Under the pieces are notes generated by a model. It was not told the DNA's origin. It was given only the letters and a program-made list of their open reading frames with translations, and ran no database searches. Source: Candidatus Bathyarchaeota archaeon (lineage in GTDB: Archaea; Thermoproteota; Bathyarchaeia; Bathyarchaeales; Bathycorpusculaceae). Taken from it: a stretch of DNA of 64,000 nucleotides. The stretch covers positions 416,001-480,000 of the forward strand of contig CAWHVC010000003.1 in assembly GCA_963832745.1 (NCBI GenBank). Reading direction: 5' to 3'. Position numbers and translations under genes: made by a program. Below, in pieces: positions 15,740 to 32,366 of the stretch (within the stretch, counting starts at the first letter, position 1; each line of letters begins with the position of its first letter).

Positions 15740-18305
15740 ATGCAAATGAAAATAAACAAAAAAAACAGAATGATACTTGCAACTATTGTAACAACGCTAT
15801 TTCTGCTGTCATCAATCGCTGCAATAATACCAGTAAATGCACAACAAATGCAAAACCCAAACACTGCCGGCGGCGCGTTACCCGCAGGAGTAAACCCTGA
15901 TGTTGTAATGGAAGGAAAAGTATTCCTCAGCTTCAGCCCTAACCCAATTGGAGTAAACCAAGAATTACTAGTCAACGTATGGAGCATACCTGCCCCCGGA
16001 GCCAACAGAGCCCACACAGGATACACTGTCACATTCACAAAACCAGACGGAACAAAAGACGTCATCGGACCCTTTAACTCATTTGTAGCAGATGGAACTA
16101 ACTGGTTCACATACACCCCAGACCAAGTTGGTAACTGGACAGTACAATTTACATATCCAGGCGACTACTATCCAGCAGGAAGATACGTCAACGGCGTTCT
16201 TAACAATTCAGCACCACCCGGATCAAGCTTCATGGACCAACGCGATTATCCAGAAACATGGTATAAACCAGCTGAAACCCCAGTACAAACACTTGAAGTA
16301 CAACAAGACCCCGTAATGTCATGGTATTCACCACTACCAACTGATTATTGGACAAGACCAATCTCTCCAGAAAACAGAGAATGGTCAGCAATCGGCGGCA
16401 ACTACCCTTACGCATACTACAACACTATGTGCCGTGATAATGGCCCATTCATCACAGCCCCAAACACATCGCACATAGTCTGGAAACAACAAGAAGCAGT
16501 AGCTGGCATTATAGGCGGTGAAGCAGGAACAATACAGCATATCAGCTCAAGCAGGCACTCCAAGCGTAATTTACCTCGGCAGATGTTACCAAACTCTAAC
16601 AGTACCAGTCAACGGCGTTCCCACAAGCTGTGCAGTATGCTATGATTTGCAAACAGGAAAACAATACTACGCCATACCGGTCGCGCAAGGCGGAGTAACA
16701 CCAACAGCAATATCTTATATTTCACCAACCGCAGTAGCAGGCATCGGAAGCATCGCTTCAGGCAGTTTCACTGTTGAATTAATAACATTAGCTGGTGGAG
16801 CAAGCATGTATGGGCCTCCAGCACCGCTGCGACTATACAAAATAGACCCATATACAGGCGCTGTCACTTTTAACATGTCACTACCTGCATTAGCATCGGG
16901 AACAATTTACAACAACGGCCTTGTACTAAGCACACAGACAATTAACGCATCACGCGGCGAATATAGGCTAATAAACTGGACTACCGCTGGATCTAGCACA
17001 AACTTTGCAACAAGAATATTCAGCAACGTAAGCTGGCCAACCAACATGGCACCTGGTGGACAGGGATTATCAGCCGATTTCAATACTGGAGTAGCGGTTG
17101 GAACAGTAGCAGGCATCTATGGATCAAACTCTAATGGAGCAGCCGTTACTGGAGGAGACTTCGGATTAGCTTCAGGCGCTTACGGAACACGGATAGTTGG
17201 AATCAGCCTAATAACAGGACAAGTACTCTACAACTTTACAACTACAGACACATCATTCCAGCCCGGAGCAAACTCTTACGTAGACGGAAAACTCCTAATG
17301 CCAATGGACATGGGCATTCTTAACTGCTATGATGTACTCACCGGAAAACTTCTTTGGACCTCTCATGATTTTGATTACCCATGGGGAGCATTCGGAGCAT
17401 ATAACGCTGAAGGAGCATACGGCTTATACTATTGGCAAACATACGATGGAGTAGTTGCATTCAACGTAAGCACAGGACAACGACAATGGAAATTCCAGGC
17501 ACCTGCACCAGCATTTGAAACGCCTTACACAATGTCTAACGGTAGTAGTCAATATGCCTTCTTTGGCGCAGCCCAGATAGCTGACGGAAAAATCTATACA
17601 TACAACACCGAACACACCGCAAGCCAACCAATCACTAGAGGTTGGAAACTCTATTGCATTGACGCATATACGGGCGAAGGATTATGGAACATCACAGGTC
17701 CAATGCAACCAGGCGCAATATCAGACGGATACCTAACCGCAGGCAACGCATATGACGGATACATGTACGTCTTTGGCAAAGGTCAATCAGCCACCACAGT
17801 ATCAGCACCTCAAACCCAAATCACCACCGAAACAAACGTCATAATTTCAGGAACCGTCCTAGACCAGTCACCAGGACAACCAGGCACACCATGCGTTTCC
17901 AAAGAATCAATGACGGGAATGATGGAATACATACACATGCAGCATCAAATGCCAGCAGACGTTATAGGCGTACCAGTATCTATTGACGCAGTTGACCCCA
18001 ATGGCAACTCAGTACATTTAGGGGATGCAGTAAGCGATGCAAGCGGCACATTCTCATACGTCTGGACCCCAACAGTGGAAGGCAACTACAAGATAACTGC
18101 AACATTCATGGGCGACGACTCATACGGCAGCAGTTGGGCAGAAACACACGCAACCGTAGTTAATGCCCCAGCAACATCACCTTCACCATCGCAGGTCAAC
18201 TTTGATTCAGTCAACAGCAACATAACAACCACAATCATAGCAGGAGTAGTAGCCATCATCATTACAGTACTACTAGTTGGTTTGCTAATACTGCGAAAGA
18301 AATAA
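15740..18305 (+). CDS. secreted PQQ-binding-like beta-propeller surface protein with C-terminal TM anchor; +1 frameshift at ~16527
   Basis: Signal peptide, repeated CYD/AFN..TGxxxW blades, Ig-like C-terminal domain, TM + RKK. Removing one A in GGAACAATAC fuses ORFs 15740 and 16518 (..GGEAGQYSIS..). Confidence 0.85.
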
Positions 18306-26080: not shown

Positions 26081-26356
26081 TTAAACTAGGGCTAGTTTTC
26101 GTAGCCTTATTCCATCTTTGTGGCGCATGTAACCGCATTTTTTACATTTCAAACGTAAAGTTTGTTTTTTGGTTGTTTTGGCGAATTCATGTTGTAGTGG
26201 ATATTTTTGTCCACCGTAGCCTTTCTTTTCTCTATCGTGGTGGCGTTCGCCTTTAGCCATGGCTCTACGTTTTCCAGCCTTGTATAGGGTTACATTGTGA
26301 GCTTCATGATCTTTACATTTTGGACAGTAAGTCTTGACTTCTTTAGGAACGTTCAC
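26081..26356 (-). CDS. rpl44e: 50S ribosomal protein L44e (eL42)
   Basis: VPKEVKTYCPKC..GYGGQKYP..AKTTKK..LKCKKC. Confidence 0.96.
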   Translation of the reverse strand: MNVPKEVKTYCPKCKDHEAHNVTLYKAGKRRAMAKGERHHDREKKGYGGQKYPLQHEFAKTTKKQTLRLKCKKCGYMRHKDGIRLRKLALV

Positions 26357-26629
26357 TTTGTTCACTACCAGCTTTAGCTTTGCATAAAAGTAACGCACAC
26401 ATTCTTATACTTTTTCGCTGACGAATTTTAAAAAGTAACTCACAGGTAACACTTTAACTATCAATTTTTTGTTTAGAAGTTGTTGCCGCAGAGCCTCTTA
26501 GCACAACAACAACCAACAGACTTAGTTAACGTTTGTGTTTTGGGCTTTGCTGTTTTAGGGGGTTTCAGGCTGGTTGTGGCATGTTCTACAAGTATATGGA
26601 TCCAATAATTGTAAATAGCCAACCGTCAT

Positions 26630-27475
26630 ATGGCTGATAGGGAAATGAGCATGTGCGTTGAAGAGATTAAACCAACCTCATGGCAAAAACTTGTTAACGA
26701 ACTTTTCAGGGATTGCGCCTTACAAGAACATATTATGCGGTACCGATCTCTTTACGCATATCGAGGACTTTCCGATAGCACTTATACCTTAAAAACCTCA
26801 CTGATACGCCTGCACGACAAAAACATTAATTGTTGTCAAAAAGTTGAGCCGCATCTTCTTAAAAATTTTATGAAATACTCAAGGGAGGATTATCCAAGCT
26901 ACTCGAAATGGCAATGGCTAGCACTTGCCCAACATCATGGCTTACCAACAAGATTACTAGATTGGACTTTTTCTCCTTTTGTTGCGTTACACTTTGCCAC
27001 TGCCGACAGCAAAAAATTCGATTGCGATGGTGCAGTATGGCTTGTCAACTTCGAAAAAGTGCATAAAGAATTGCCTACAGAAATATATAGCCAATTTGAT
27101 AAAGAAGGGTCATATGTCTTTACCGTCACATCTCTCTCAAAGATAGCAAAAGATTTGGAAACATTTGACAAGATCGATAATAAGGGTAAGCCATTTGCCT
27201 TATTTTTTGAGCCACCATCACTTGATGAACGAATTGTAAATCAATCTGCCTTGCATTCGATTATTTCCAGCCCAACAATGCGATTTGATGAACTCTTAGA
27301 GCAGCATCCTAGTTGGTACAAGAGAATAATTATCCCTAAGCAACTAAAAGCTGAAATTAGAGATAAACTTGACCAAGCGAATATAACAGAAAGGGTTCTA
27401 TTTCCAGGACTAGATGGATTGAGCAGTTGGTTGTCAAGATGGTATGGACCCAGCTATTTAACGAGTTTGCGCTAA
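26630..27475 (+). CDS. FRG domain-containing protein
   Basis: YAYRG, LAQHHGLPTRLLDWTFSPFVALHFA, ERIVNQSA, LFPGLDG. Confidence 0.92.
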   Translation: MADREMSMCVEEIKPTSWQKLVNELFRDCALQEHIMRYRSLYAYRGLSDSTYTLKTSLIRLHDKNINCCQKVEPHLLKNFMKYSREDYPSYSKWQWLALAQHHGLPTRLLDWTFSPFVALHFATADSKKFDCDGAVWLVNFEKVHKELPTEIYSQFDKEGSYVFTVTSLSKIAKDLETFDKIDNKGKPFALFFEPPSLDERIVNQSALHSIISSPTMRFDELLEQHPSWYKRIIIPKQLKAEIRDKLDQANITERVLFPGLDGLSSWLSRWYGPSYLTSLR

Positions 27476-27743
27476 GTCTTTCCGTTAGTCCAAATAGTCA
27501 AGTTATCATTTGCCTATACTGCTTAGAATCCTTAACCATAAGGGCTAGAACGCCAGTGACATGATGATACAGACAAAATCCACGACAACACCTAAAATAA
27601 CATTTGACTATCCTGTTGTATAAAATTTACAGATATATCCGACAAGATTGGAGTTACAAAGATATAACCCAAATAGGCAAACACAGCCTAATGCTGCCTT
27701 CATACTTATTTTTTCGGGTTCATAGACTATTAAATGTCTATTT

Positions 27744-28769
27744 GTGAATAACAGTAAAACTAATAATAGAACTAACGTTAATTTGCTTTTTATGAAACTA
27801 AACGAACTTGAGGAGTACTTACAACTAATTTTTGACAAGGAAATTAGCGATCAAAAATACGAGAAAAAGGACCTATTTAATTGCCCTAGCTTAGACCTTA
27901 CAAAACCCATTGTTTACCCTAACGGTCAAACCCTTGTGGATTTATTTTCGAACGTTAGCAATGAAATAGAACTAAATAAAAGGGTTCTCGAGAGACTTAA
28001 GAAAGAAATCATCAAAGCCCCAGAAGAGCAGAGTGCATCGGTGATGACTTATACATTTTATTGTGGAATTTCCCCTCTTTGTTTTTTTGCCTTAATAGAA
28101 TCAGGTTTTGTGAATGAAGCCATAGATTGTCTAAATCTAAGAATACAAACCTCGTATGGTATAACTAGATTAGTAAATATATATTTAGAAAAAAACATCT
28201 TTAATTACGATCAGTTAAACCATCTGGCAAAGCGATATAAAGACCCAGATTATTCCAGAAAGATCTTGGATAAAAAGTTTAACATTTTTAAAAAACAGCT
28301 AAAAACTATCAATTTAGAGATAAATCAGGACAAAATAATCGTTTCACAAAAAATTAAAAACTACGGATTCAGCGATAAATATAATGAGTATCTCAATTTG
28401 ATAGATGAATTTATTCGAACTGATGCTTCAAAAGTAATGAATGCAGGTATGATTAGCACTCTCAGATCATTCATGGCTGAGTTAATTACTGACATTGCAA
28501 ATAGAATCGCCTTTTACGAAAAAGAGACAATTCCAAAGTATGAGGGGCATCAAGAGTTGGGCAATATTAGAATTTACTTAAAAAAGAAGTTAGAACTGAG
28601 TGAAAAAGACCACAAGCTCATCAATGCTATTGTCGAAGTCTTACATGAAGAGGGCGCACATTCTATGATGACAAACAAAGAATATTTTCGGCTTTCAAAG
28701 AATATTGTGATAGAAGTAGCCCTTTTTATATTATTAAAATATGAGCAGAAATACGGAATAGCGAAATAG
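27744..28769 (+). CDS. AT-rich hypothetical protein, C-terminal Abi_C/HEPN-like helical domain candidate
   Basis: Low-GC ORF; ..STLRSFMAELI.. followed by LHEEGAH near the C-terminus. Confidence 0.6.
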   Translation: MNNSKTNNRTNVNLLFMKLNELEEYLQLIFDKEISDQKYEKKDLFNCPSLDLTKPIVYPNGQTLVDLFSNVSNEIELNKRVLERLKKEIIKAPEEQSASVMTYTFYCGISPLCFFALIESGFVNEAIDCLNLRIQTSYGITRLVNIYLEKNIFNYDQLNHLAKRYKDPDYSRKILDKKFNIFKKQLKTINLEINQDKIIVSQKIKNYGFSDKYNEYLNLIDEFIRTDASKVMNAGMISTLRSFMAELITDIANRIAFYEKETIPKYEGHQELGNIRIYLKKKLELSEKDHKLINAIVEVLHEEGAHSMMTNKEYFRLSKNIVIEVALFILLKYEQKYGIAK

Positions 28770-28908
28770 TAGTCCTTAAGTTACAAGGTAACTCGCTCAT
28801 AAGTGGTATCTACGATACATCTCAAGTTAATTTTCTCCTTACAGAGCGACGATAAGTTACTATATGCTCGCTTACTATAAGAGCAAAATAAAGTGATTTA
28901 AAAAAGTT

Positions 28909-30333
28909 TTAATCTCCTCGTGGGATTGTCAAAAAGAATGGTTCTGGCCCCATTTCTGCTGTTGCATAAACAGCTAAAGCCATAGCCCAAAAAGCGTCGT
29001 CGTTTGTTCCTTGTGGGTGGTGATACCCGATTGTGCCGTCTTTGTTTAGGCTATAGCGTTCAACGTTAAGTTCTGTGCAGATTTCTCCCCTGTAAGGTCT
29101 TTCCCAGTGAAGAAGGGGATAAAAGAGTTGGCGGTTTGCCATGCGTTGTTTGAGCAGGCTTGCCATTTCGCTTTTTCGTGGTACACTAAAGTTTACTCCT
29201 TCCGCGTTTCGGATGCCTGCGGCTTCCATGTCGGCGATTATGCTTGGGCCTTCGCGTGTGAAGTCTACGCGGATTTTTTGGAATCCGTGCCAGCGATCTT
29301 GCAGGGCTTTAAGGTAACCTAAAACGGTGGCGTATATGGTGGGTTGCTGGAAGATTTTGAGGTGCCGCAGAAACAGTCGCTCGTCAGCTTTTTCTATTAC
29401 GGCAAGGGCGGTGTAGTCGCGGGTTTGAGCCAAATCCAACCCAACAAAGAATGTTCCTCGGCGTTCGGTTTCAGGGTTGTATTCCTGCAGGTCTTCTCCG
29501 CAAGTGGCTATGGTGCCTATGCATTGGGCGATTTGGCTTTGGGTTAACCATACGTCTTGGTCTTCTGCCCATTCCGCCTGCATCTCACGGCGCCAACGGA
29601 TCGGGTCATCACCCATCTGGGTTTTGATTTTCTGTATTATGCCCTGCTTTAACGGTCCATTGGGTTCCATGGCTTGTTCGACGGTTACGTGTGAGGTTTT
29701 GTAGTCGGCAAAGTCTTTGTGGTTAAAGATTTTGAAAAAGACGCTGTCGGTGTGCCATGGTGTACTGCTGCAGACGAATTTGCCATCTGTTGTGCCAAGA
29801 GTGTAGAGAATGGCGTCGTATAGTTCTTGGTCGTTGGCGACAAAATTGAATTCGTCAGCGTAGACCACGTGGAGGGTTGGTCCTCGGATGGTTTCGGGGT
29901 TGTTTGGGAATGCTTCGATTGTGCTGCCGTTGGTGAAGTGGATTTGGGTGCGTTGAGGCTTAAACGCGTAACCCGAAGGCAGTTTGTGGGTGAATGCTGC
30001 GATGCGTGAGAGGATTCGTTTGGTTTGCCGCCAACTTGGACCTACTATGCCGACTGCGCTGTCTGGATGCGTTACTGCATACCATAATAGCAGGGCAGCT
30101 ACAATGAAGCTTTTGCCACTTTGGCGGCTCCACCGTGCCGCTGTAAACTGGTTACCCACAAATAGGCGAATAAACTGTTCTTGATAACTAAACGGCGAGA
30201 ACCCCAAGAGTTCCCTGCAGAAAACTATGGGGTCACTGCTGAGCAACTCTGTTTTTTCTTGCGCCAACTCTTCGGCTAGCTGGTTATTCTGTTGGAGCTT
30301 GTGCCACCGTGGTAGGAACTGGTTGGGGCGCAG
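28909..30333 (-). CDS. terminase large subunit (Terminase_6 / 6C type ATPase-nuclease)
   Basis: FSYQEQF adenine motif, Walker A WSRQSGKS, Walker B VYADE, coupling motif SST, nuclease VGLDLA..VDFT..NDDAFWA. The frame is open to CTG 30333; the ORF track start is TTG 30267. Confidence 0.9.
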   Translation of the reverse strand: MRPNQFLPRWHKLQQNNQLAEELAQEKTELLSSDPIVFCRELLGFSPFSYQEQFIRLFVGNQFTAARWSRQSGKSFIVAALLLWYAVTHPDSAVGIVGPSWRQTKRILSRIAAFTHKLPSGYAFKPQRTQIHFTNGSTIEAFPNNPETIRGPTLHVVYADEFNFVANDQELYDAILYTLGTTDGKFVCSSTPWHTDSVFFKIFNHKDFADYKTSHVTVEQAMEPNGPLKQGIIQKIKTQMGDDPIRWRREMQAEWAEDQDVWLTQSQIAQCIGTIATCGEDLQEYNPETERRGTFFVGLDLAQTRDYTALAVIEKADERLFLRHLKIFQQPTIYATVLGYLKALQDRWHGFQKIRVDFTREGPSIIADMEAAGIRNAEGVNFSVPRKSEMASLLKQRMANRQLFYPLLHWERPYRGEICTELNVERYSLNKDGTIGYHHPQGTNDDAFWAMALAVYATAEMGPEPFFLTIPRGD

Positions 30334-30751
30334 GGTTTTGGCTTATGTTTTGCAGGAGCGCGGCATATTTTGCCTCCATATCGTTTAGTTTGGCTTCGAT
30401 TTCTCGGTAATTGATGTAGTCAGCTAAGATTTCCTTGTAGGCGCGGGCTAAGGTGGCGACGACTTGGAGCCGCTGCACCTCGGTTTTGCTTAAGCCTGGT
30501 TCAGATGCGGCTTCTAAGGCTCCGGCAAGTTTTCTGAGAGTTTCTTCTACGCTTGGCAACTCTTCGGGCAACGGCAATTGTTTCTCGGTTGCTTGCCCAC
30601 TGATTTGCAGTCCAAGACGTTGACTTTTAACAAGAACCGCAGTTGGCTGCCTACACAACGCTGCAGCTATAACGTCAAGAGGCGTATTTGCCAGAACCAG
30701 TTTTCTTAGTTGGGCTTCTTCTTGAGGCGTCCAAGGTAATCCACGAGTCAC
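30284..30751 (-). CDS. Myb/GcrA-like HTH protein with C-terminal coiled coil; putative terminase small subunit
   Basis: WTPQEEAQLRKL..IAAALCR..SQRLGL; coiled coil YREIEAKLNDMEAKY; directly upstream of terL with a GGTGA SD. Confidence 0.65.
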   Translation of the reverse strand: MTRGLPWTPQEEAQLRKLVLANTPLDVIAAALCRQPTAVLVKSQRLGLQISGQATEKQLPLPEELPSVEETLRKLAGALEAASEPGLSKTEVQRLQVVATLARAYKEILADYINYREIEAKLNDMEAKYAALLQNISQNPAPQPVPTTVAQAPTE

Positions 30752-30919
30752 ATTTTCACCTGTACAACTGGAAACGCAAGGTTGCTTTTGGAGTTTTTTA
30801 TCGTTAAAAAAGGTGCATAATTTAATGTCTTTTGTAAACTAGTTAAATGTTAAAGCTTTTTTTAGAGCACATTTTTAAGTTTCTTACCGTTATGGGAAAC
30901 TTTTTTTATACAGACAACT

Positions 30920-31141
30920 ATGTGTAAGAGATACAAAGGATGGAACGATAAGCTGGACCAGTTAAATAACATTTTAATTTTCTTGGTTCTTATTCCAATG
31001 CTTGTGAGTTCATTTATCGGCATATTAGTCTACATCTTTGGGGTTAATAACACGTTAATTTTGTTTATAGTTGGAATTGTTTGTTTTCTAGCCTTTTCAG
31101 GGTTTGTTCGCTTACTATGCAAACTATTTAGTAGCAGCTAG
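30920..31141 (+). CDS. small two-TM hypothetical protein
   Basis: ATG start and two hydrophobic helices. Confidence 0.5.
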   Translation: MCKRYKGWNDKLDQLNNILIFLVLIPMLVSSFIGILVYIFGVNNTLILFIVGIVCFLAFSGFVRLLCKLFSSS

Positions 31142-31274
31142 ACACATGAATTTGCCATAAAAAATATTCAGCAAATCAGAGCGCCTAAATCAGTTTTCCT
31201 AGATTGCAACGTTTGGGAAACTCTTTTTATGACTCCGCTTCACCGTATTATGTTCAAGATGGATTGGTAACTCA

Positions 31275-32366
31275 ATGCCTAACGTTTTTGAGCAAATCAG
31301 AAATCAACCCAGCATGCTCTTGCCATTGTTACCACTGATAGCATTTGTTATTCCTCTGCTTGGATTATACCTATTCAATCCTGTCGAACCCTTCATAGGC
31401 ATAACATCAGATTATACAGCTCAAAAAACGTTCGAGTCAATGTGGAAAGGCAGAACCTTTGAATTATTCTTTGTTTGGTTAATCGGCCTTGAACTTATTT
31501 TAGGCTGGGAAAACTTTAAAGAAACAAAATTAAAAAAACTTGCAGCCCCACGCACCATAGCGCTCATAGTAGCTTTAATCCTTCCAACACTTTACGTTTT
31601 GGCATCATACACTTTTGGATTAAATGACACCATCGTAAATTGGGCGCTTTCAAACAATGTTCAGGGCGGCTGGGCTACAACAATGCCCGTATCCATTGAA
31701 TACTTAGCCTTTGCAGCCGTCTTCACGGCAGTAGCGTTTTTGATGTTTGGCAAAAAAGGCTTAATCAACTATGCCTTACCAGCGTTTTTCATGATAATGG
31801 TTGGAGTAATATACATCATTGACAACGTGTACCCGTACGGCCAGTTTACGTTGTTCCAGTTTTTTGTTCCAACCGCAGCCGCAACAGCCGCAGCATTCTT
31901 CAACCTAATGGGATACAACACAGTTTTAACTCAACAGACAGACATGGTCCATGGAACAATGCCAGTCTTAACTGTTTCAGGCCCAGCAGGAGTCACACAG
32001 TTCGGCATCGCATGGCCATGTGCAGGCATCGAAAGCTTCCTAATCTACACTGTTGTGGTGCTGCTGTTTTTGAAGCGTATGCCAATTTCTTGGAAAGCAA
32101 AAATCGGTTACTTTGCATTCGGCGCAATAGTCACATATTTCATCAATATCGCAAGAATAATGAACATTTTTTTAATTGGCATGCAGTACGGCGCAGCTTC
32201 ACCCGAAGTAGACCTGTTCCATAGCTATTACGGACCACTCTATTCGATAACATGGATAATTATGTATCCGCTTTTGATATTTTTAGTTCAAAACATGTGG
32301 CACAGGTACAAAAGCAACAAATTAACCAAAGCATCCGTGCCAAAAAACAATTTGCCAATAAAATAA
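31275..32366 (+). CDS. archaeosortase/exosortase family protein (thaumarchaeosortase-like)
   Basis: Multi-TM protein with Cys-Arg-His triad motifs WPCAGIES, NIARI and LFHSYYG. Confidence 0.85.
   Translation: MPNVFEQIRNQPSMLLPLLPLIAFVIPLLGLYLFNPVEPFIGITSDYTAQKTFESMWKGRTFELFFVWLIGLELILGWENFKETKLKKLAAPRTIALIVALILPTLYVLASYTFGLNDTIVNWALSNNVQGGWATTMPVSIEYLAFAAVFTAVAFLMFGKKGLINYALPAFFMIMVGVIYIIDNVYPYGQFTLFQFFVPTAAATAAAFFNLMGYNTVLTQQTDMVHGTMPVLTVSGPAGVTQFGIAWPCAGIESFLIYTVVVLLFLKRMPISWKAKIGYFAFGAIVTYFINIARIMNIFLIGMQYGAASPEVDLFHSYYGPLYSITWIIMYPLLIFLVQNMWHRYKSNKLTKASVPKNNLPIK

Follow-up and report, generated by a model that had tools for sequence, protein, structure and literature searches.

This study concerns a pair of adjacent genes in a 64,000-nucleotide stretch of DNA, referred to here as the window, from a Candidatus Bathyarchaeota archaeon. 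The pair consists of a large terminase gene (terL) and a small gene for a helix-turn-helix (HTH) protein that resembles a small terminase subunit (TerS). The window is contig 3, positions 416001-480000, of a 3.02-Mb genome (G000), 99% complete and in 5 contigs. The pair is very probably a functional-looking terS-terL operon of viral descent that stands alone, is vertically inherited, and is selectively kept in the host chromosome. Stand-alone HTH-terL pairs are called solos below; related genomes are given G numbers and their loci L numbers. The features that define the locus are as follows.

28909..30267, minus strand: terL, large terminase; open reading frame (ORF) with Terminase_6N, Terminase_6C and phrog_2 matches
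30284..30751, minus strand: TerS-like HTH gene, 155 aa; ORF, AlphaFold2 (AF2) model, Foldseek, profile search and phrog_323 (6.5e-6)
30752..30833, minus strand: putative promoter or leader of the operon, ~80 bp 5' of the HTH start; still aligns to both the orthologue in G008 and the copy in G007
26417..31211, no strand: inserted segment, ~4.8 kb, relative to the empty sites of G017 and G024
26081..26398, minus strand: host flank, ribosomal protein L44e-like gene, 91-93% identical in G008, G017 and G024
31275..32366, plus strand: host flank, archaeosortase-family gene; Exosortase_EpsH 2.7e-10, TIGR04178 2.9e-14

The gene pair and its site

TerL is 452 aa long when read from the first TTG, within an open frame of 477 aa. 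It matched Pfam Terminase_6N (2.6e-18, 66.9 bits against a cut-off of 22), and Terminase_6C just under the 22.6 cut-off (4e-4, 20.8 bits). The match to phrog_2 'terminase large subunit' (1.2e-36) spans residues 23-435. The ATPase motifs are WSRQSGKS (Walker A) at residue 46, VVYADE (Walker B) at 134 and SST(P) at 167, and the acidic residues of the nuclease, D278, D335 and D423/D424, lie in GLDLA (273-280), RVDFT (333) and NDD (422-424). R-Q-x-G-K, D-E and S-T-P are invariant in 23/23 aligned intact solos and in 6/6 copies from full elements or packaging modules, and the three nuclease acidic positions (D of GLDLA, D of RVDFT, HDD) are invariant in 23/23 aligned solos. The C-terminus is kept to the stop codon in both solos and full elements. 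On this sequence evidence, 28909..30267 is a large terminase with an N-terminal ASCE ATPase and a C-terminal RNase H-like nuclease. An earlier note on the window had read the gene as a terminase-type ATPase-nuclease, and every motif that it named was present and invariant or nearly so in relatives.

The upstream protein consists of a GcrA/Myb-type HTH (residues ~5-50), a disordered linker, a helical core, a helix of ~50 residues and a variable tail. In the AF2 model (pLDDT 73.6), helices at 9-20, 25-31 and 36-45 form a three-helix bundle (residues 9-45), and further helices occupy 68-82 and 89-137. The family alignment contains a conserved helical core motif, LPSVEE...YKE.LADY..YR..E.KL. With Foldseek, part of the model matched 5yiv, the DNA-binding domain of GcrA (36% identity and rmsd 1.1 Å across 45 residues), and the profile search gave GcrA 5yiu at 4e-4, both in agreement with the proposed Myb/GcrA-like HTH. 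The HTH of the Tc3 transposase, 1tc3, was equally similar (rmsd 1.1 Å over 42 residues). An ESM Atlas Terminase_5 cluster scored 0.81 for the protein, which is a lead only. Equally as a lead, an Atlas cluster of look-alikes of the HTH protein has few labelled members, most of them Candidatus Bathyarchaeota. The HTH gene is directly 5' of terL and in the same orientation in 31/31 solo loci, and it is also directly 5' of terL in full elements of G014, G052 and G005. The 155-aa protein has a TerS-like layout and is the predicted DNA-recognition subunit, that is, the TerS-like partner of TerL.

The locus is an insertion into a spacer between housekeeping genes. In the congeners G017 and G024, both without any TerL, the site is empty, with 362 and 373 bp between the L44e-like and archaeosortase genes. 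Homology to the empty sites stops at ~26416 and restarts at ~31212, breakpoints that are approximate because ~280 bp of the empty-site spacer are too diverged to align. The insertion contains an FRG-domain gene, a gene for a 341-aa protein, terL, the HTH gene and a 73-aa ORF. The gene at 26081..26398 is presumably L44e, a name given by eye from the sequence and without a family search; the same side also holds S27e and eIF2-alpha. On the other side the archaeosortase gene, which also matched the thaumarchaeosortase model at 1.5e-17 but under the cut-off of that model, is accompanied by a 181-aa gene and by a 414-aa gene that we take to encode a small primase subunit (PriS-like). This set of genes (L44e, S27e, eIF2-alpha, PriS-like, archaeosortase) marks the source of the window as an archaeon. 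The sister species G008 has an HTH-terL pair at the same site (TerL 96%, HTH 91% identical), with other genes between terL and L44e than in the window. DNA similarity between the window and the loci of relatives was limited to 28916-30833 in 24/24 cases. The blastn alignments reach 30831-30833 in L007 and L016 and end at 30750 in L008; the segment 30752..30833 is presumed to be the promoter or leader of the operon.

TerL normally sits beside portal and capsid genes in Caudoviricetes. This is true of relatives at 34-67% identity, and not of the window locus or the genome around it. When all proteins of five related complete elements were compared with the window by tblastn, TerL and HTH alone were matched. 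The PF00589 integrase profile had 9 matches in the genome and 0 in the window, the nearest being at C3:403990, 12 kb outside. The statement that the 64 kb hold no other virion or integrase gene therefore stands for these two tests, not every window ORF having been run against Pfam. There is no tRNA in the window, and the window has no att-type or terminal repeats around the insertion above shuffled controls.

Both ORFs are intact, as first described, and the pair is indeed GC-richer than its neighbours: 49.9% for terL and 50.2% for the HTH gene, compared with 31.9% for the 341-aa gene and 41.0% for the archaeosortase gene alongside, and 41.8% for the genome. Family means are 47.7% in solos and 46.4% in full elements. 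High GC is thus a trait of the whole TerL family and no sign of recent arrival.

Copies, viral relatives and selection

The genome has three intact HTH-terL pairs, namely the window copy, C3:49350-51204 and C3:179089-181021. In addition there is a frameshifted pair at C4:141750-143596 and one C-terminal TerL fragment. Identity between these copies is 26-49% for HTH and 60-71% for TerL. HTH and terL are the only genes that the four loci have in common within ±15 kb, except for an unrelated repeated family ~12 kb away. The window pair is one of several copies, not a lone remnant. The earlier description of a stand-alone intact pair without a provirus was therefore correct as far as it went, but it had missed that the pair is multicopy and genus-wide. 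A separate observation concerns positions ~15900-18300 of the window, which have tblastx similarity to regions 10-12 kb from two of the other solo copies in this genome; they belong to a multicopy gene family with several copies near C4:141-143 kb.

For a census, 60 relatives were drawn from a genus that holds more, so that counts refer to 61 genomes including G000. TerL matches were found in 45/61 genomes and in 29/36 congeners, with up to 10 matches per genome, many of which were fragments. The 70 stretches scanned were 66 fetched loci plus the 4 loci of G000. They yielded 31 solo HTH-terL pairs, 27 of them intact and 4 broken, spread over 16 genomes that all belong to the genus of the window. 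The other TerL loci comprised 10 full elements, 6 packaging modules with no head-tail genes close by, and 13 divergent TerLs in other contexts. One of the packaging modules, L060, does carry genes for a major capsid protein (MCP) and a portal-like protein upstream.

In G014 (two loci), G005 (four), G052, G038, G042, G049 and G057 the HTH-terL pair, or terL alone, is at one end of a conserved block of head-tailed virus genes. The block begins with a wHTH protein, e16, e17, a scaffold-like protein, a cement protein (PF09956) and an HK97 MCP (PF05065 and PF25209). It continues with a portal-like protein (e6, a weak match to phrog_9232 at 6e-6), two unknown proteins, a tail tube protein (PF18906), a Neck1/HK97-gp10-like protein and tail proteins, and ends with e0, e19, HTH, TerL and an ABC-ATPase/GNAT fusion. 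In G014b and G052 the block is followed, some kb past ABC/GNAT, by a tyrosine integrase gene. In IMG/VR, 14/14 contigs with a TerL 50-63% identical to that of the window had the context e0-e19-(HTH)-TerL-(ABC/GNAT). The relatives just outside the solo clade described below, 64-67% identical, are in complete proviruses with MCP, portal-like, tail and integrase genes. As judged from these relationships, the pair descends from small temperate head-tailed proviruses of this archaeal lineage. The complete elements are of the same general kind as Fuxivirus and Kunpengvirus, to which they are likened by description and not by sequence. Those tailed viruses of Bathyarchaeia are small and have an HK97 MCP, a portal, TerL, a tail tube and in some cases an integrase, according to the main text of the paper that reported them (bioRxiv 10.1101/2023.08.24.554615). 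In that main text 'terminase' occurs once and stand-alone terminase pairs are not mentioned.

Two observations on the viral copies are recorded here. The ABC-type ATPase/GNAT fusion of ~480 aa (L037:10474-11913; cluster e2/c4), which matched phrog_293 (1.5e-35), phrog_11143 and, weakly, PADLOC mad3, comes after TerL in almost every viral or packaging-module copy and in no solo. In G052, the left border of a complete provirus (L048:2130-2509) contains an HTH gene and a short N-terminal TerL fragment (residues 21-42), as if the provirus adjoined or sat within an older solo.

A tree of 55 intact TerLs was built with IQ-TREE (quick search, LG+G4); one intact solo, L035, was left out. The TerL of the window falls in a clade (SH-aLRT 100) of 17 TerLs, every one of them from a solo, which a branch of 0.24 separates from the full-element TerLs. 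Members of this clade have ~11 different flanking contexts. Smaller solo clades and singletons adjoin full elements in the tree, and the solo state requires at least 4-5 changes; solos therefore arise repeatedly from the virus family, and one solo lineage at least has persisted and diversified. Truncated solos were seen as well: L110, L111, L112, L113 and L115, 5 of the 6 isolated N-terminal fragment loci examined, retain HTH and TerL from residue ~5 to 96-163. In four of the five the break is at 139-163, just past Walker B, which looks like a recurrent break region.

Selection was estimated as pairwise dN/dS (omega) by the Nei-Gojobori method. Compared with the G008 orthologue, TerL has dN 0.026, dS 0.547 and omega 0.048, and HTH has omega 0.108, whereas 14 flanking host genes have omega 0.024-0.199 at dS 0.31-1.7. 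The solo-solo median omega is 0.10 (46 pairs, range 0.048-0.264) versus 0.084 for 8 pairs of full elements or packaging modules. The dN/dS analysis that had been proposed thus gave purifying values for both genes; purifying selection on the pair is strong, as it is on the housekeeping genes nearby. A second locus has the same host genes upstream in five species, between which identity is 74-84% for TerL, 81-91% for these host genes and 59-80% for HTH. The G008 orthologue and this five-species locus show vertical retention at syntenic sites.

These results bear on the reading of the pair as an ordinary prophage remnant, the functionless last genes of a provirus. The family is viral, the same genome has decayed remnants and a frameshifted copy, 4/31 solos are broken, and an ABC/GNAT remnant stands right after TerL in solo L033. 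Neutral decay is nevertheless contradicted by the low omega, the intact motifs and the syntenic retention. Omega (0.048 for TerL and 0.108 for HTH at dS 0.55) equals that of the housekeeping neighbours; the motifs are invariant in 23/23; one locus has intact orthologues in at least 5 species; 17 solos form a clade of their own; and the window locus has clean boundaries with no viral gene stubs. A functionless remnant is accordingly extremely improbable for the window pair. The earlier note had named two signs of such a remnant, closest homologues in complete proviruses and relaxed selection. The closest non-solo relatives do sit in complete proviruses, but relaxed selection was not seen.

The rest of the genome was searched for the structural genes of the family. 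With every protein of the five complete elements as tblastn queries, G000 had no MCP, portal-like, tube, neck or tail match. Pfam Phage_capsid (PF05065) and Phage_portal (PF04860) had no match, although control genomes did match, and family profiles of MCP and tube had none either. G010 (92% complete) and G022 (95%) likewise have solos and no MCP or tube match. Structural traces in G000 are ragged remnants only. The earlier idea of a retained minimal module gains from this absence of capsid, portal and tail genes, together with the omega of 0.048, the synteny in the sister species and the 17-solo clade.

Decayed remnants of the virus family in G000 were noted at C5:453446-458811, C2:230227-232004 and C1:402928-411789. 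In the C5 remnant a deletion joins residue 30 of the cement protein to TerL residue 425; the TerL piece (425-480) is 92-95% identical to a G014 full element, and a broken integrase is nearby at C5:452372. In the C2 remnant e0-e19 are fused to ABC/GNAT residues 234-479 and HTH-TerL is missing.

The lack of structural genes tells against the possibility that the solo is a dispersed component of a gene transfer agent (GTA), serving host-encoded head-tail clusters elsewhere in the chromosome. Congeners do hold material that would suit such a system. Intact structural clusters that lack TerL and end after a tail gene occur at L088 (G030:C1:170000-189999), L089/L090 (G014) and L091 (G008:C9:180000-199999), and separate e0-e19-TerL-ABC/GNAT modules occur in the same genomes, at L041 (G030:C3) and L065 (G008:C9:223000-242999). 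L041 is the only TerL match in G030 (97% complete). The TerL-less clusters and separate packaging modules could be a split, GTA-like system, and vertical inheritance with purifying selection is also GTA-like. The 99%-complete G000, however, has no MCP, portal, tube, neck or tail and yet has 3 intact solos; G010 and G022 likewise keep solos without MCP or tube, and the modules that accompany the TerL-less clusters are of the five-gene packaging type, not two-gene solos. GTAs with multi-locus genomes such as RcGTA combine virus-derived genes, purifying selection, vertical inheritance and dispersed loci (PMC5026251). They share vertical inheritance and purifying selection with the solos, but a GTA producer encodes its own head and tail and G000 does not. 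A GTA role is conceivable in congeners with TerL-less structural clusters; for the window pair it is very improbable. Among the options listed in the earlier note, the dispersed GTA component is therefore disfavored here, while the satellite-type packaging hijacker and the domesticated unit both remain.

Asymmetric flanks and a proposed action in trans

When loci are oriented in the direction terS to terL, their two flanks differ. The 5' neighbours are common within each of three groups (ownA/L026; ownB/L034/L052/L072; L063/L064/L073), whereas the first gene past the TerL stop differs within each of them. The solo unit ends at the TerL stop codon. Extra TerL pieces near the 31 solos (9/9 matches, at 5 loci) are without exception downstream and same-strand, and every one of the 5 fragment tracts reaches the TerL C-terminus (residues 336 to end). 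The search took in 241 kb on the upstream side of these solos and 247 kb on the downstream side, and it found no TerL fragment upstream or on the opposite strand. At L063 the order is TerL, a 4.1-kb insert, a 3' fragment, a MazE cassette, a second 3' fragment, and host sequence. The first fragment is 92% identical to the TerL of the orthologue, and the second is 75% identical to a different solo lineage. The orthologue of L063, L064, is without the 4.1-kb insert, and the same MazE cassette (94% nucleotide identity) is 3' of TerL at another locus in another genome. As a side observation, host genes s42-s44 are upstream of the solo in G000 (ownB, G000:C3:39350-61204) and downstream of it in G014 (L034, G014:C1:179000-198999), so that a rearrangement breakpoint coincides with the solo locus.

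To our knowledge a terminase has no job without procapsids or viral DNA, and action in trans during infection by a related virus would therefore be the most likely mode of function. A domesticated or satellite-like terminase operon that acts in trans with related viruses is the best explanation of the whole, and is offered as a leading candidate and not as a probable one. As a mechanism it is possible, though we hold this quite tentatively, that the pair works with the procapsids of a related virus and mobilizes the DNA 3' of terL. A related virus would supply the procapsids, the pair itself having no capsid genes. The HTH subunit would bind a putative cognate site in or near its own operon, and TerL would cut there and load chromosomal DNA into the foreign capsids in the terS-to-terL direction. 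DNA just 3' of terL would then be mobilized, as in lateral transduction, and the diversion of capsids from the virus would amount to interference of the satellite kind. Incoming DNA would always begin with terL sequence and recombine there. Because incoming DNA would start in terL, this scheme would account for a 5' flank that is conserved, a 3' flank that is hypervariable, and TerL 3' fragments that lie exclusively downstream. A further step is to regard solo operons as minimal archaeal virus satellites or 'pac islands' that lack capsid, integrase and replication genes, seize procapsids and package the chromosome from their own site, with interference and lateral transduction as the outcomes; we consider this rather doubtful. 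Packaging of DNA from the pair's own site and cutting or sequestering of viral DNA or portals are compatible with each other as modes of action in trans.

Several points weigh against this explanation. The solo clade has its own long branch (0.24), and the fit of its TerLs to present-day portals is therefore uncertain. At least some solos are products of ordinary decay, as the L033 stub, the ragged remnants in G000 and the 4-5 origins indicate. The omega values are pairwise estimates and not codon-model fits. The HTH protein has no TerS family match in Pfam, NCBIfam or PHROG, and no solved TerS is among its Foldseek or profile matches; its ring oligomer and its binding to TerL are predicted features. 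The pac site, the helper virus, expression and transfer are likewise predictions, and helper dependence for capsids is suggested by the absent structural genes. The 3' variability could alternatively reflect an insertion hotspot unrelated to packaging. In a PADLOC scan of ORFs within 3 kb on each side, 56 models matched among 89 downstream ORFs and 18 among 79 upstream ORFs, with 1-2 proteins each. Since matches occur on both flanks, no claim of defense enrichment 3' of terL is made. Among public sequencing runs, three DNA metagenomes contain the genome at small shares (0.05-0.08), and no RNA run is listed.

The downstream fragments have another conceivable source, a recombination landing pad, in which the conserved terL 3' end serves as a homology or attachment site and insertions regenerate the pair. 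The same-strand fragments that run to the TerL C-terminus (9/9 matches, 5/31 loci), the stacked structure of L063, a 44-bp duplicate in G008 and the same feature in IMG/VR contig L105 all fit this idea. The cassettes have no recombinase, however, and complete proviruses are not flanked by TerL repeats and have their integrase beyond ABC/GNAT. Fragments occur at 5/31 loci only, the window locus not being one of them, and a landing pad would not explain why the ATPase and nuclease motifs are under purifying selection. We consider this reading quite improbable.

Related proposals about the ends of the unit were tried and rejected. A recombination crossover ~25 nt inside the terL 3' end, where blastn stops at 28934-28937, was discarded because the window copy is merely divergent in its last codons and the C-terminus is conserved. 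The idea that the terL 3' end is the attB of integrase-bearing proviruses has no support, as TerL repeats do not flank the full elements. Nor is there support for a precise excision of the two genes, given the ragged ends of the remnants.

The unit could also be an autonomous mobile element, with the TerL nuclease as transposase or homing endonuclease and HTH as the site recognizer. It is sharply bounded, ~1.9 kb long, found in ~11 contexts within one clade and in several copies per genome, and its HTH fold is as close to Tc3 transposase (1tc3) as to GcrA. Inverted and direct repeats were sought at 33 loci against 30 shuffles each. In 5/66 tests the score rose above the shuffled maximum, by ≤2 points, and the sequences concerned were unrelated. 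Outside the coding region the solo loci showed no conserved end sequence. With neither terminal repeats nor a conserved end, with no precise-excision footprint found, and with copies largely explained by vertical descent, such an element is improbable in the extreme. A self-transposing unit has no support from the 33 loci.

The pair resembles several known systems in part. It is like the Caudoviricetes TerS-TerL holoenzyme in its two-domain ATPase-nuclease, in having all motifs, and in the small HTH and helical gene directly upstream. It differs in that solos have no portal, capsid, tail or integrase, are multicopy and vertical, form their own clade, and have a small subunit outside described TerS families. 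Among phage satellites, SaPI/PICI elements have their own TerS, capsid-forming PICIs have TerS and TerL, and PLE manipulates the packaging motor. Like solos, phage satellites (SaPI/PICI, PLE) are chromosomal and without a full virion set, and carry packaging-specificity genes, often beside accessory or defense cargo; satellites interfere with the helper virus, as solos would (see also 10.1101/2024.04.22.590561, 10.1101/2025.02.11.637232 and PMC12829572). Satellites are excisable islands with integrase and att repeats, whereas solos have no integrase, att repeats, replication or excision genes, comprise only two genes, are stably inherited at syntenic sites, and reside in an archaeal host.

The likeness to lateral transduction lies in direction. 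In bacteria, according to PMC12829572, lateral transduction moves defense and accessory genes that are concentrated past pac sites, on the side towards which packaging runs. Similarly, the predicted terS-to-terL direction at solos matches the hypervariable side with TerL 3' fragments. Bacterial platforms differ in having pac and terminase within an inducible complete prophage or PICI, while a solo terminase alone would need the capsids of another virus. We know of no account of lateral transduction in archaea.

A terminase is taken as the hallmark of a complete head-tailed virus and is scored as such by virus-detection tools. Here a terminase pair behaves as a resident cellular gene family, multicopy, syntenic, under housekeeping-level constraint and in genomes without capsid genes, and solos will lead to archaeal genomes being wrongly called as containing proviruses. 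The literature searched gave no description of terS-terL pairs that stand alone under selection, though supplementary tables of provirus surveys might list such loci as 'incomplete proviruses'. If the pair does act in trans on related capsids, it would be the smallest satellite-like element known, and would provide a directional route of gene transfer in an uncultured archaeal lineage with no known transfer mechanism. If solos were 'pac islands', they would give Archaea a first lateral-transduction system and would be the first case of a terminase domesticated by itself.

Cargo genes and other features of the insertion

The remaining features of the insertion are variable cargo on the 3' side of terL and a small ORF on the 5' side of the HTH gene.

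27744..28769, plus strand: 341-aa protein, variable cargo directly 3' of terL; GC 31.9%, single copy, absent from the G008 locus
26630..27475, plus strand: FRG-domain protein, variable cargo; Pfam FRG 3.1e-28, phrog_4962 2.7e-32, PADLOC PDC-S15 2e-48
30920..31141, plus strand: 73-aa hydrophobic ORF; GC 33%, between the two copies of a 17-bp direct repeat

The FRG gene is single copy in the genome and is missing at the G008 locus. The 341-aa protein had no family match in Pfam, PHROGs, NCBIfam or PADLOC. The FRG protein and the neighbouring 341-aa, 32%-GC protein may form a two-gene defense candidate. Cargo that adjoins solos includes, besides FRG/PDC-S15 in the window, AAA_14/DUF4143 PDC-S01, a TIR-domain gene, MazE and PQQ-propeller surface proteins.

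Such neighbours raise the question of whether the terminase pair is purely an anti-virus defense, cutting or sequestering the DNA of related viruses or blocking their portals, with no transfer. In its favor are strong purifying selection and vertical retention, the presence in one genome of several paralogues that have diverged, with DNA-recognition subunits that evolve fast (HTH 26-49% versus TerL 60-71%), and birth-and-death turnover with many fragments. In addition, candidate defense or toxin-antitoxin genes (PDC-S15, PDC-S01, TIR, MazE) adjoin some solos. TerL and the HTH protein, however, had 0 matches to PADLOC-DB 2.0 models, and the neighbourhood is not enriched compared with the other flank. 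Defense alone does not explain the strictly downstream, same-strand TerL 3' fragments, and no experiment known to us has shown a terminase on its own to serve as a defense system. Pure defense is unlikely on these grounds; if it were the function, it would be a new defense principle, with a packaging enzyme turned on its own virus family.

The 73-aa ORF is bracketed by a 17-bp direct repeat (30893-30909 and 31214-31230, 16/17 identical). The G008 alignment skips 30832-31213 (~380 bp), so the ORF is absent there. The second copy of the repeat corresponds to the conserved archaeosortase promoter region of the empty sites, and the segment 30893-31230 looks like a separate small insertion or a promoter duplication.

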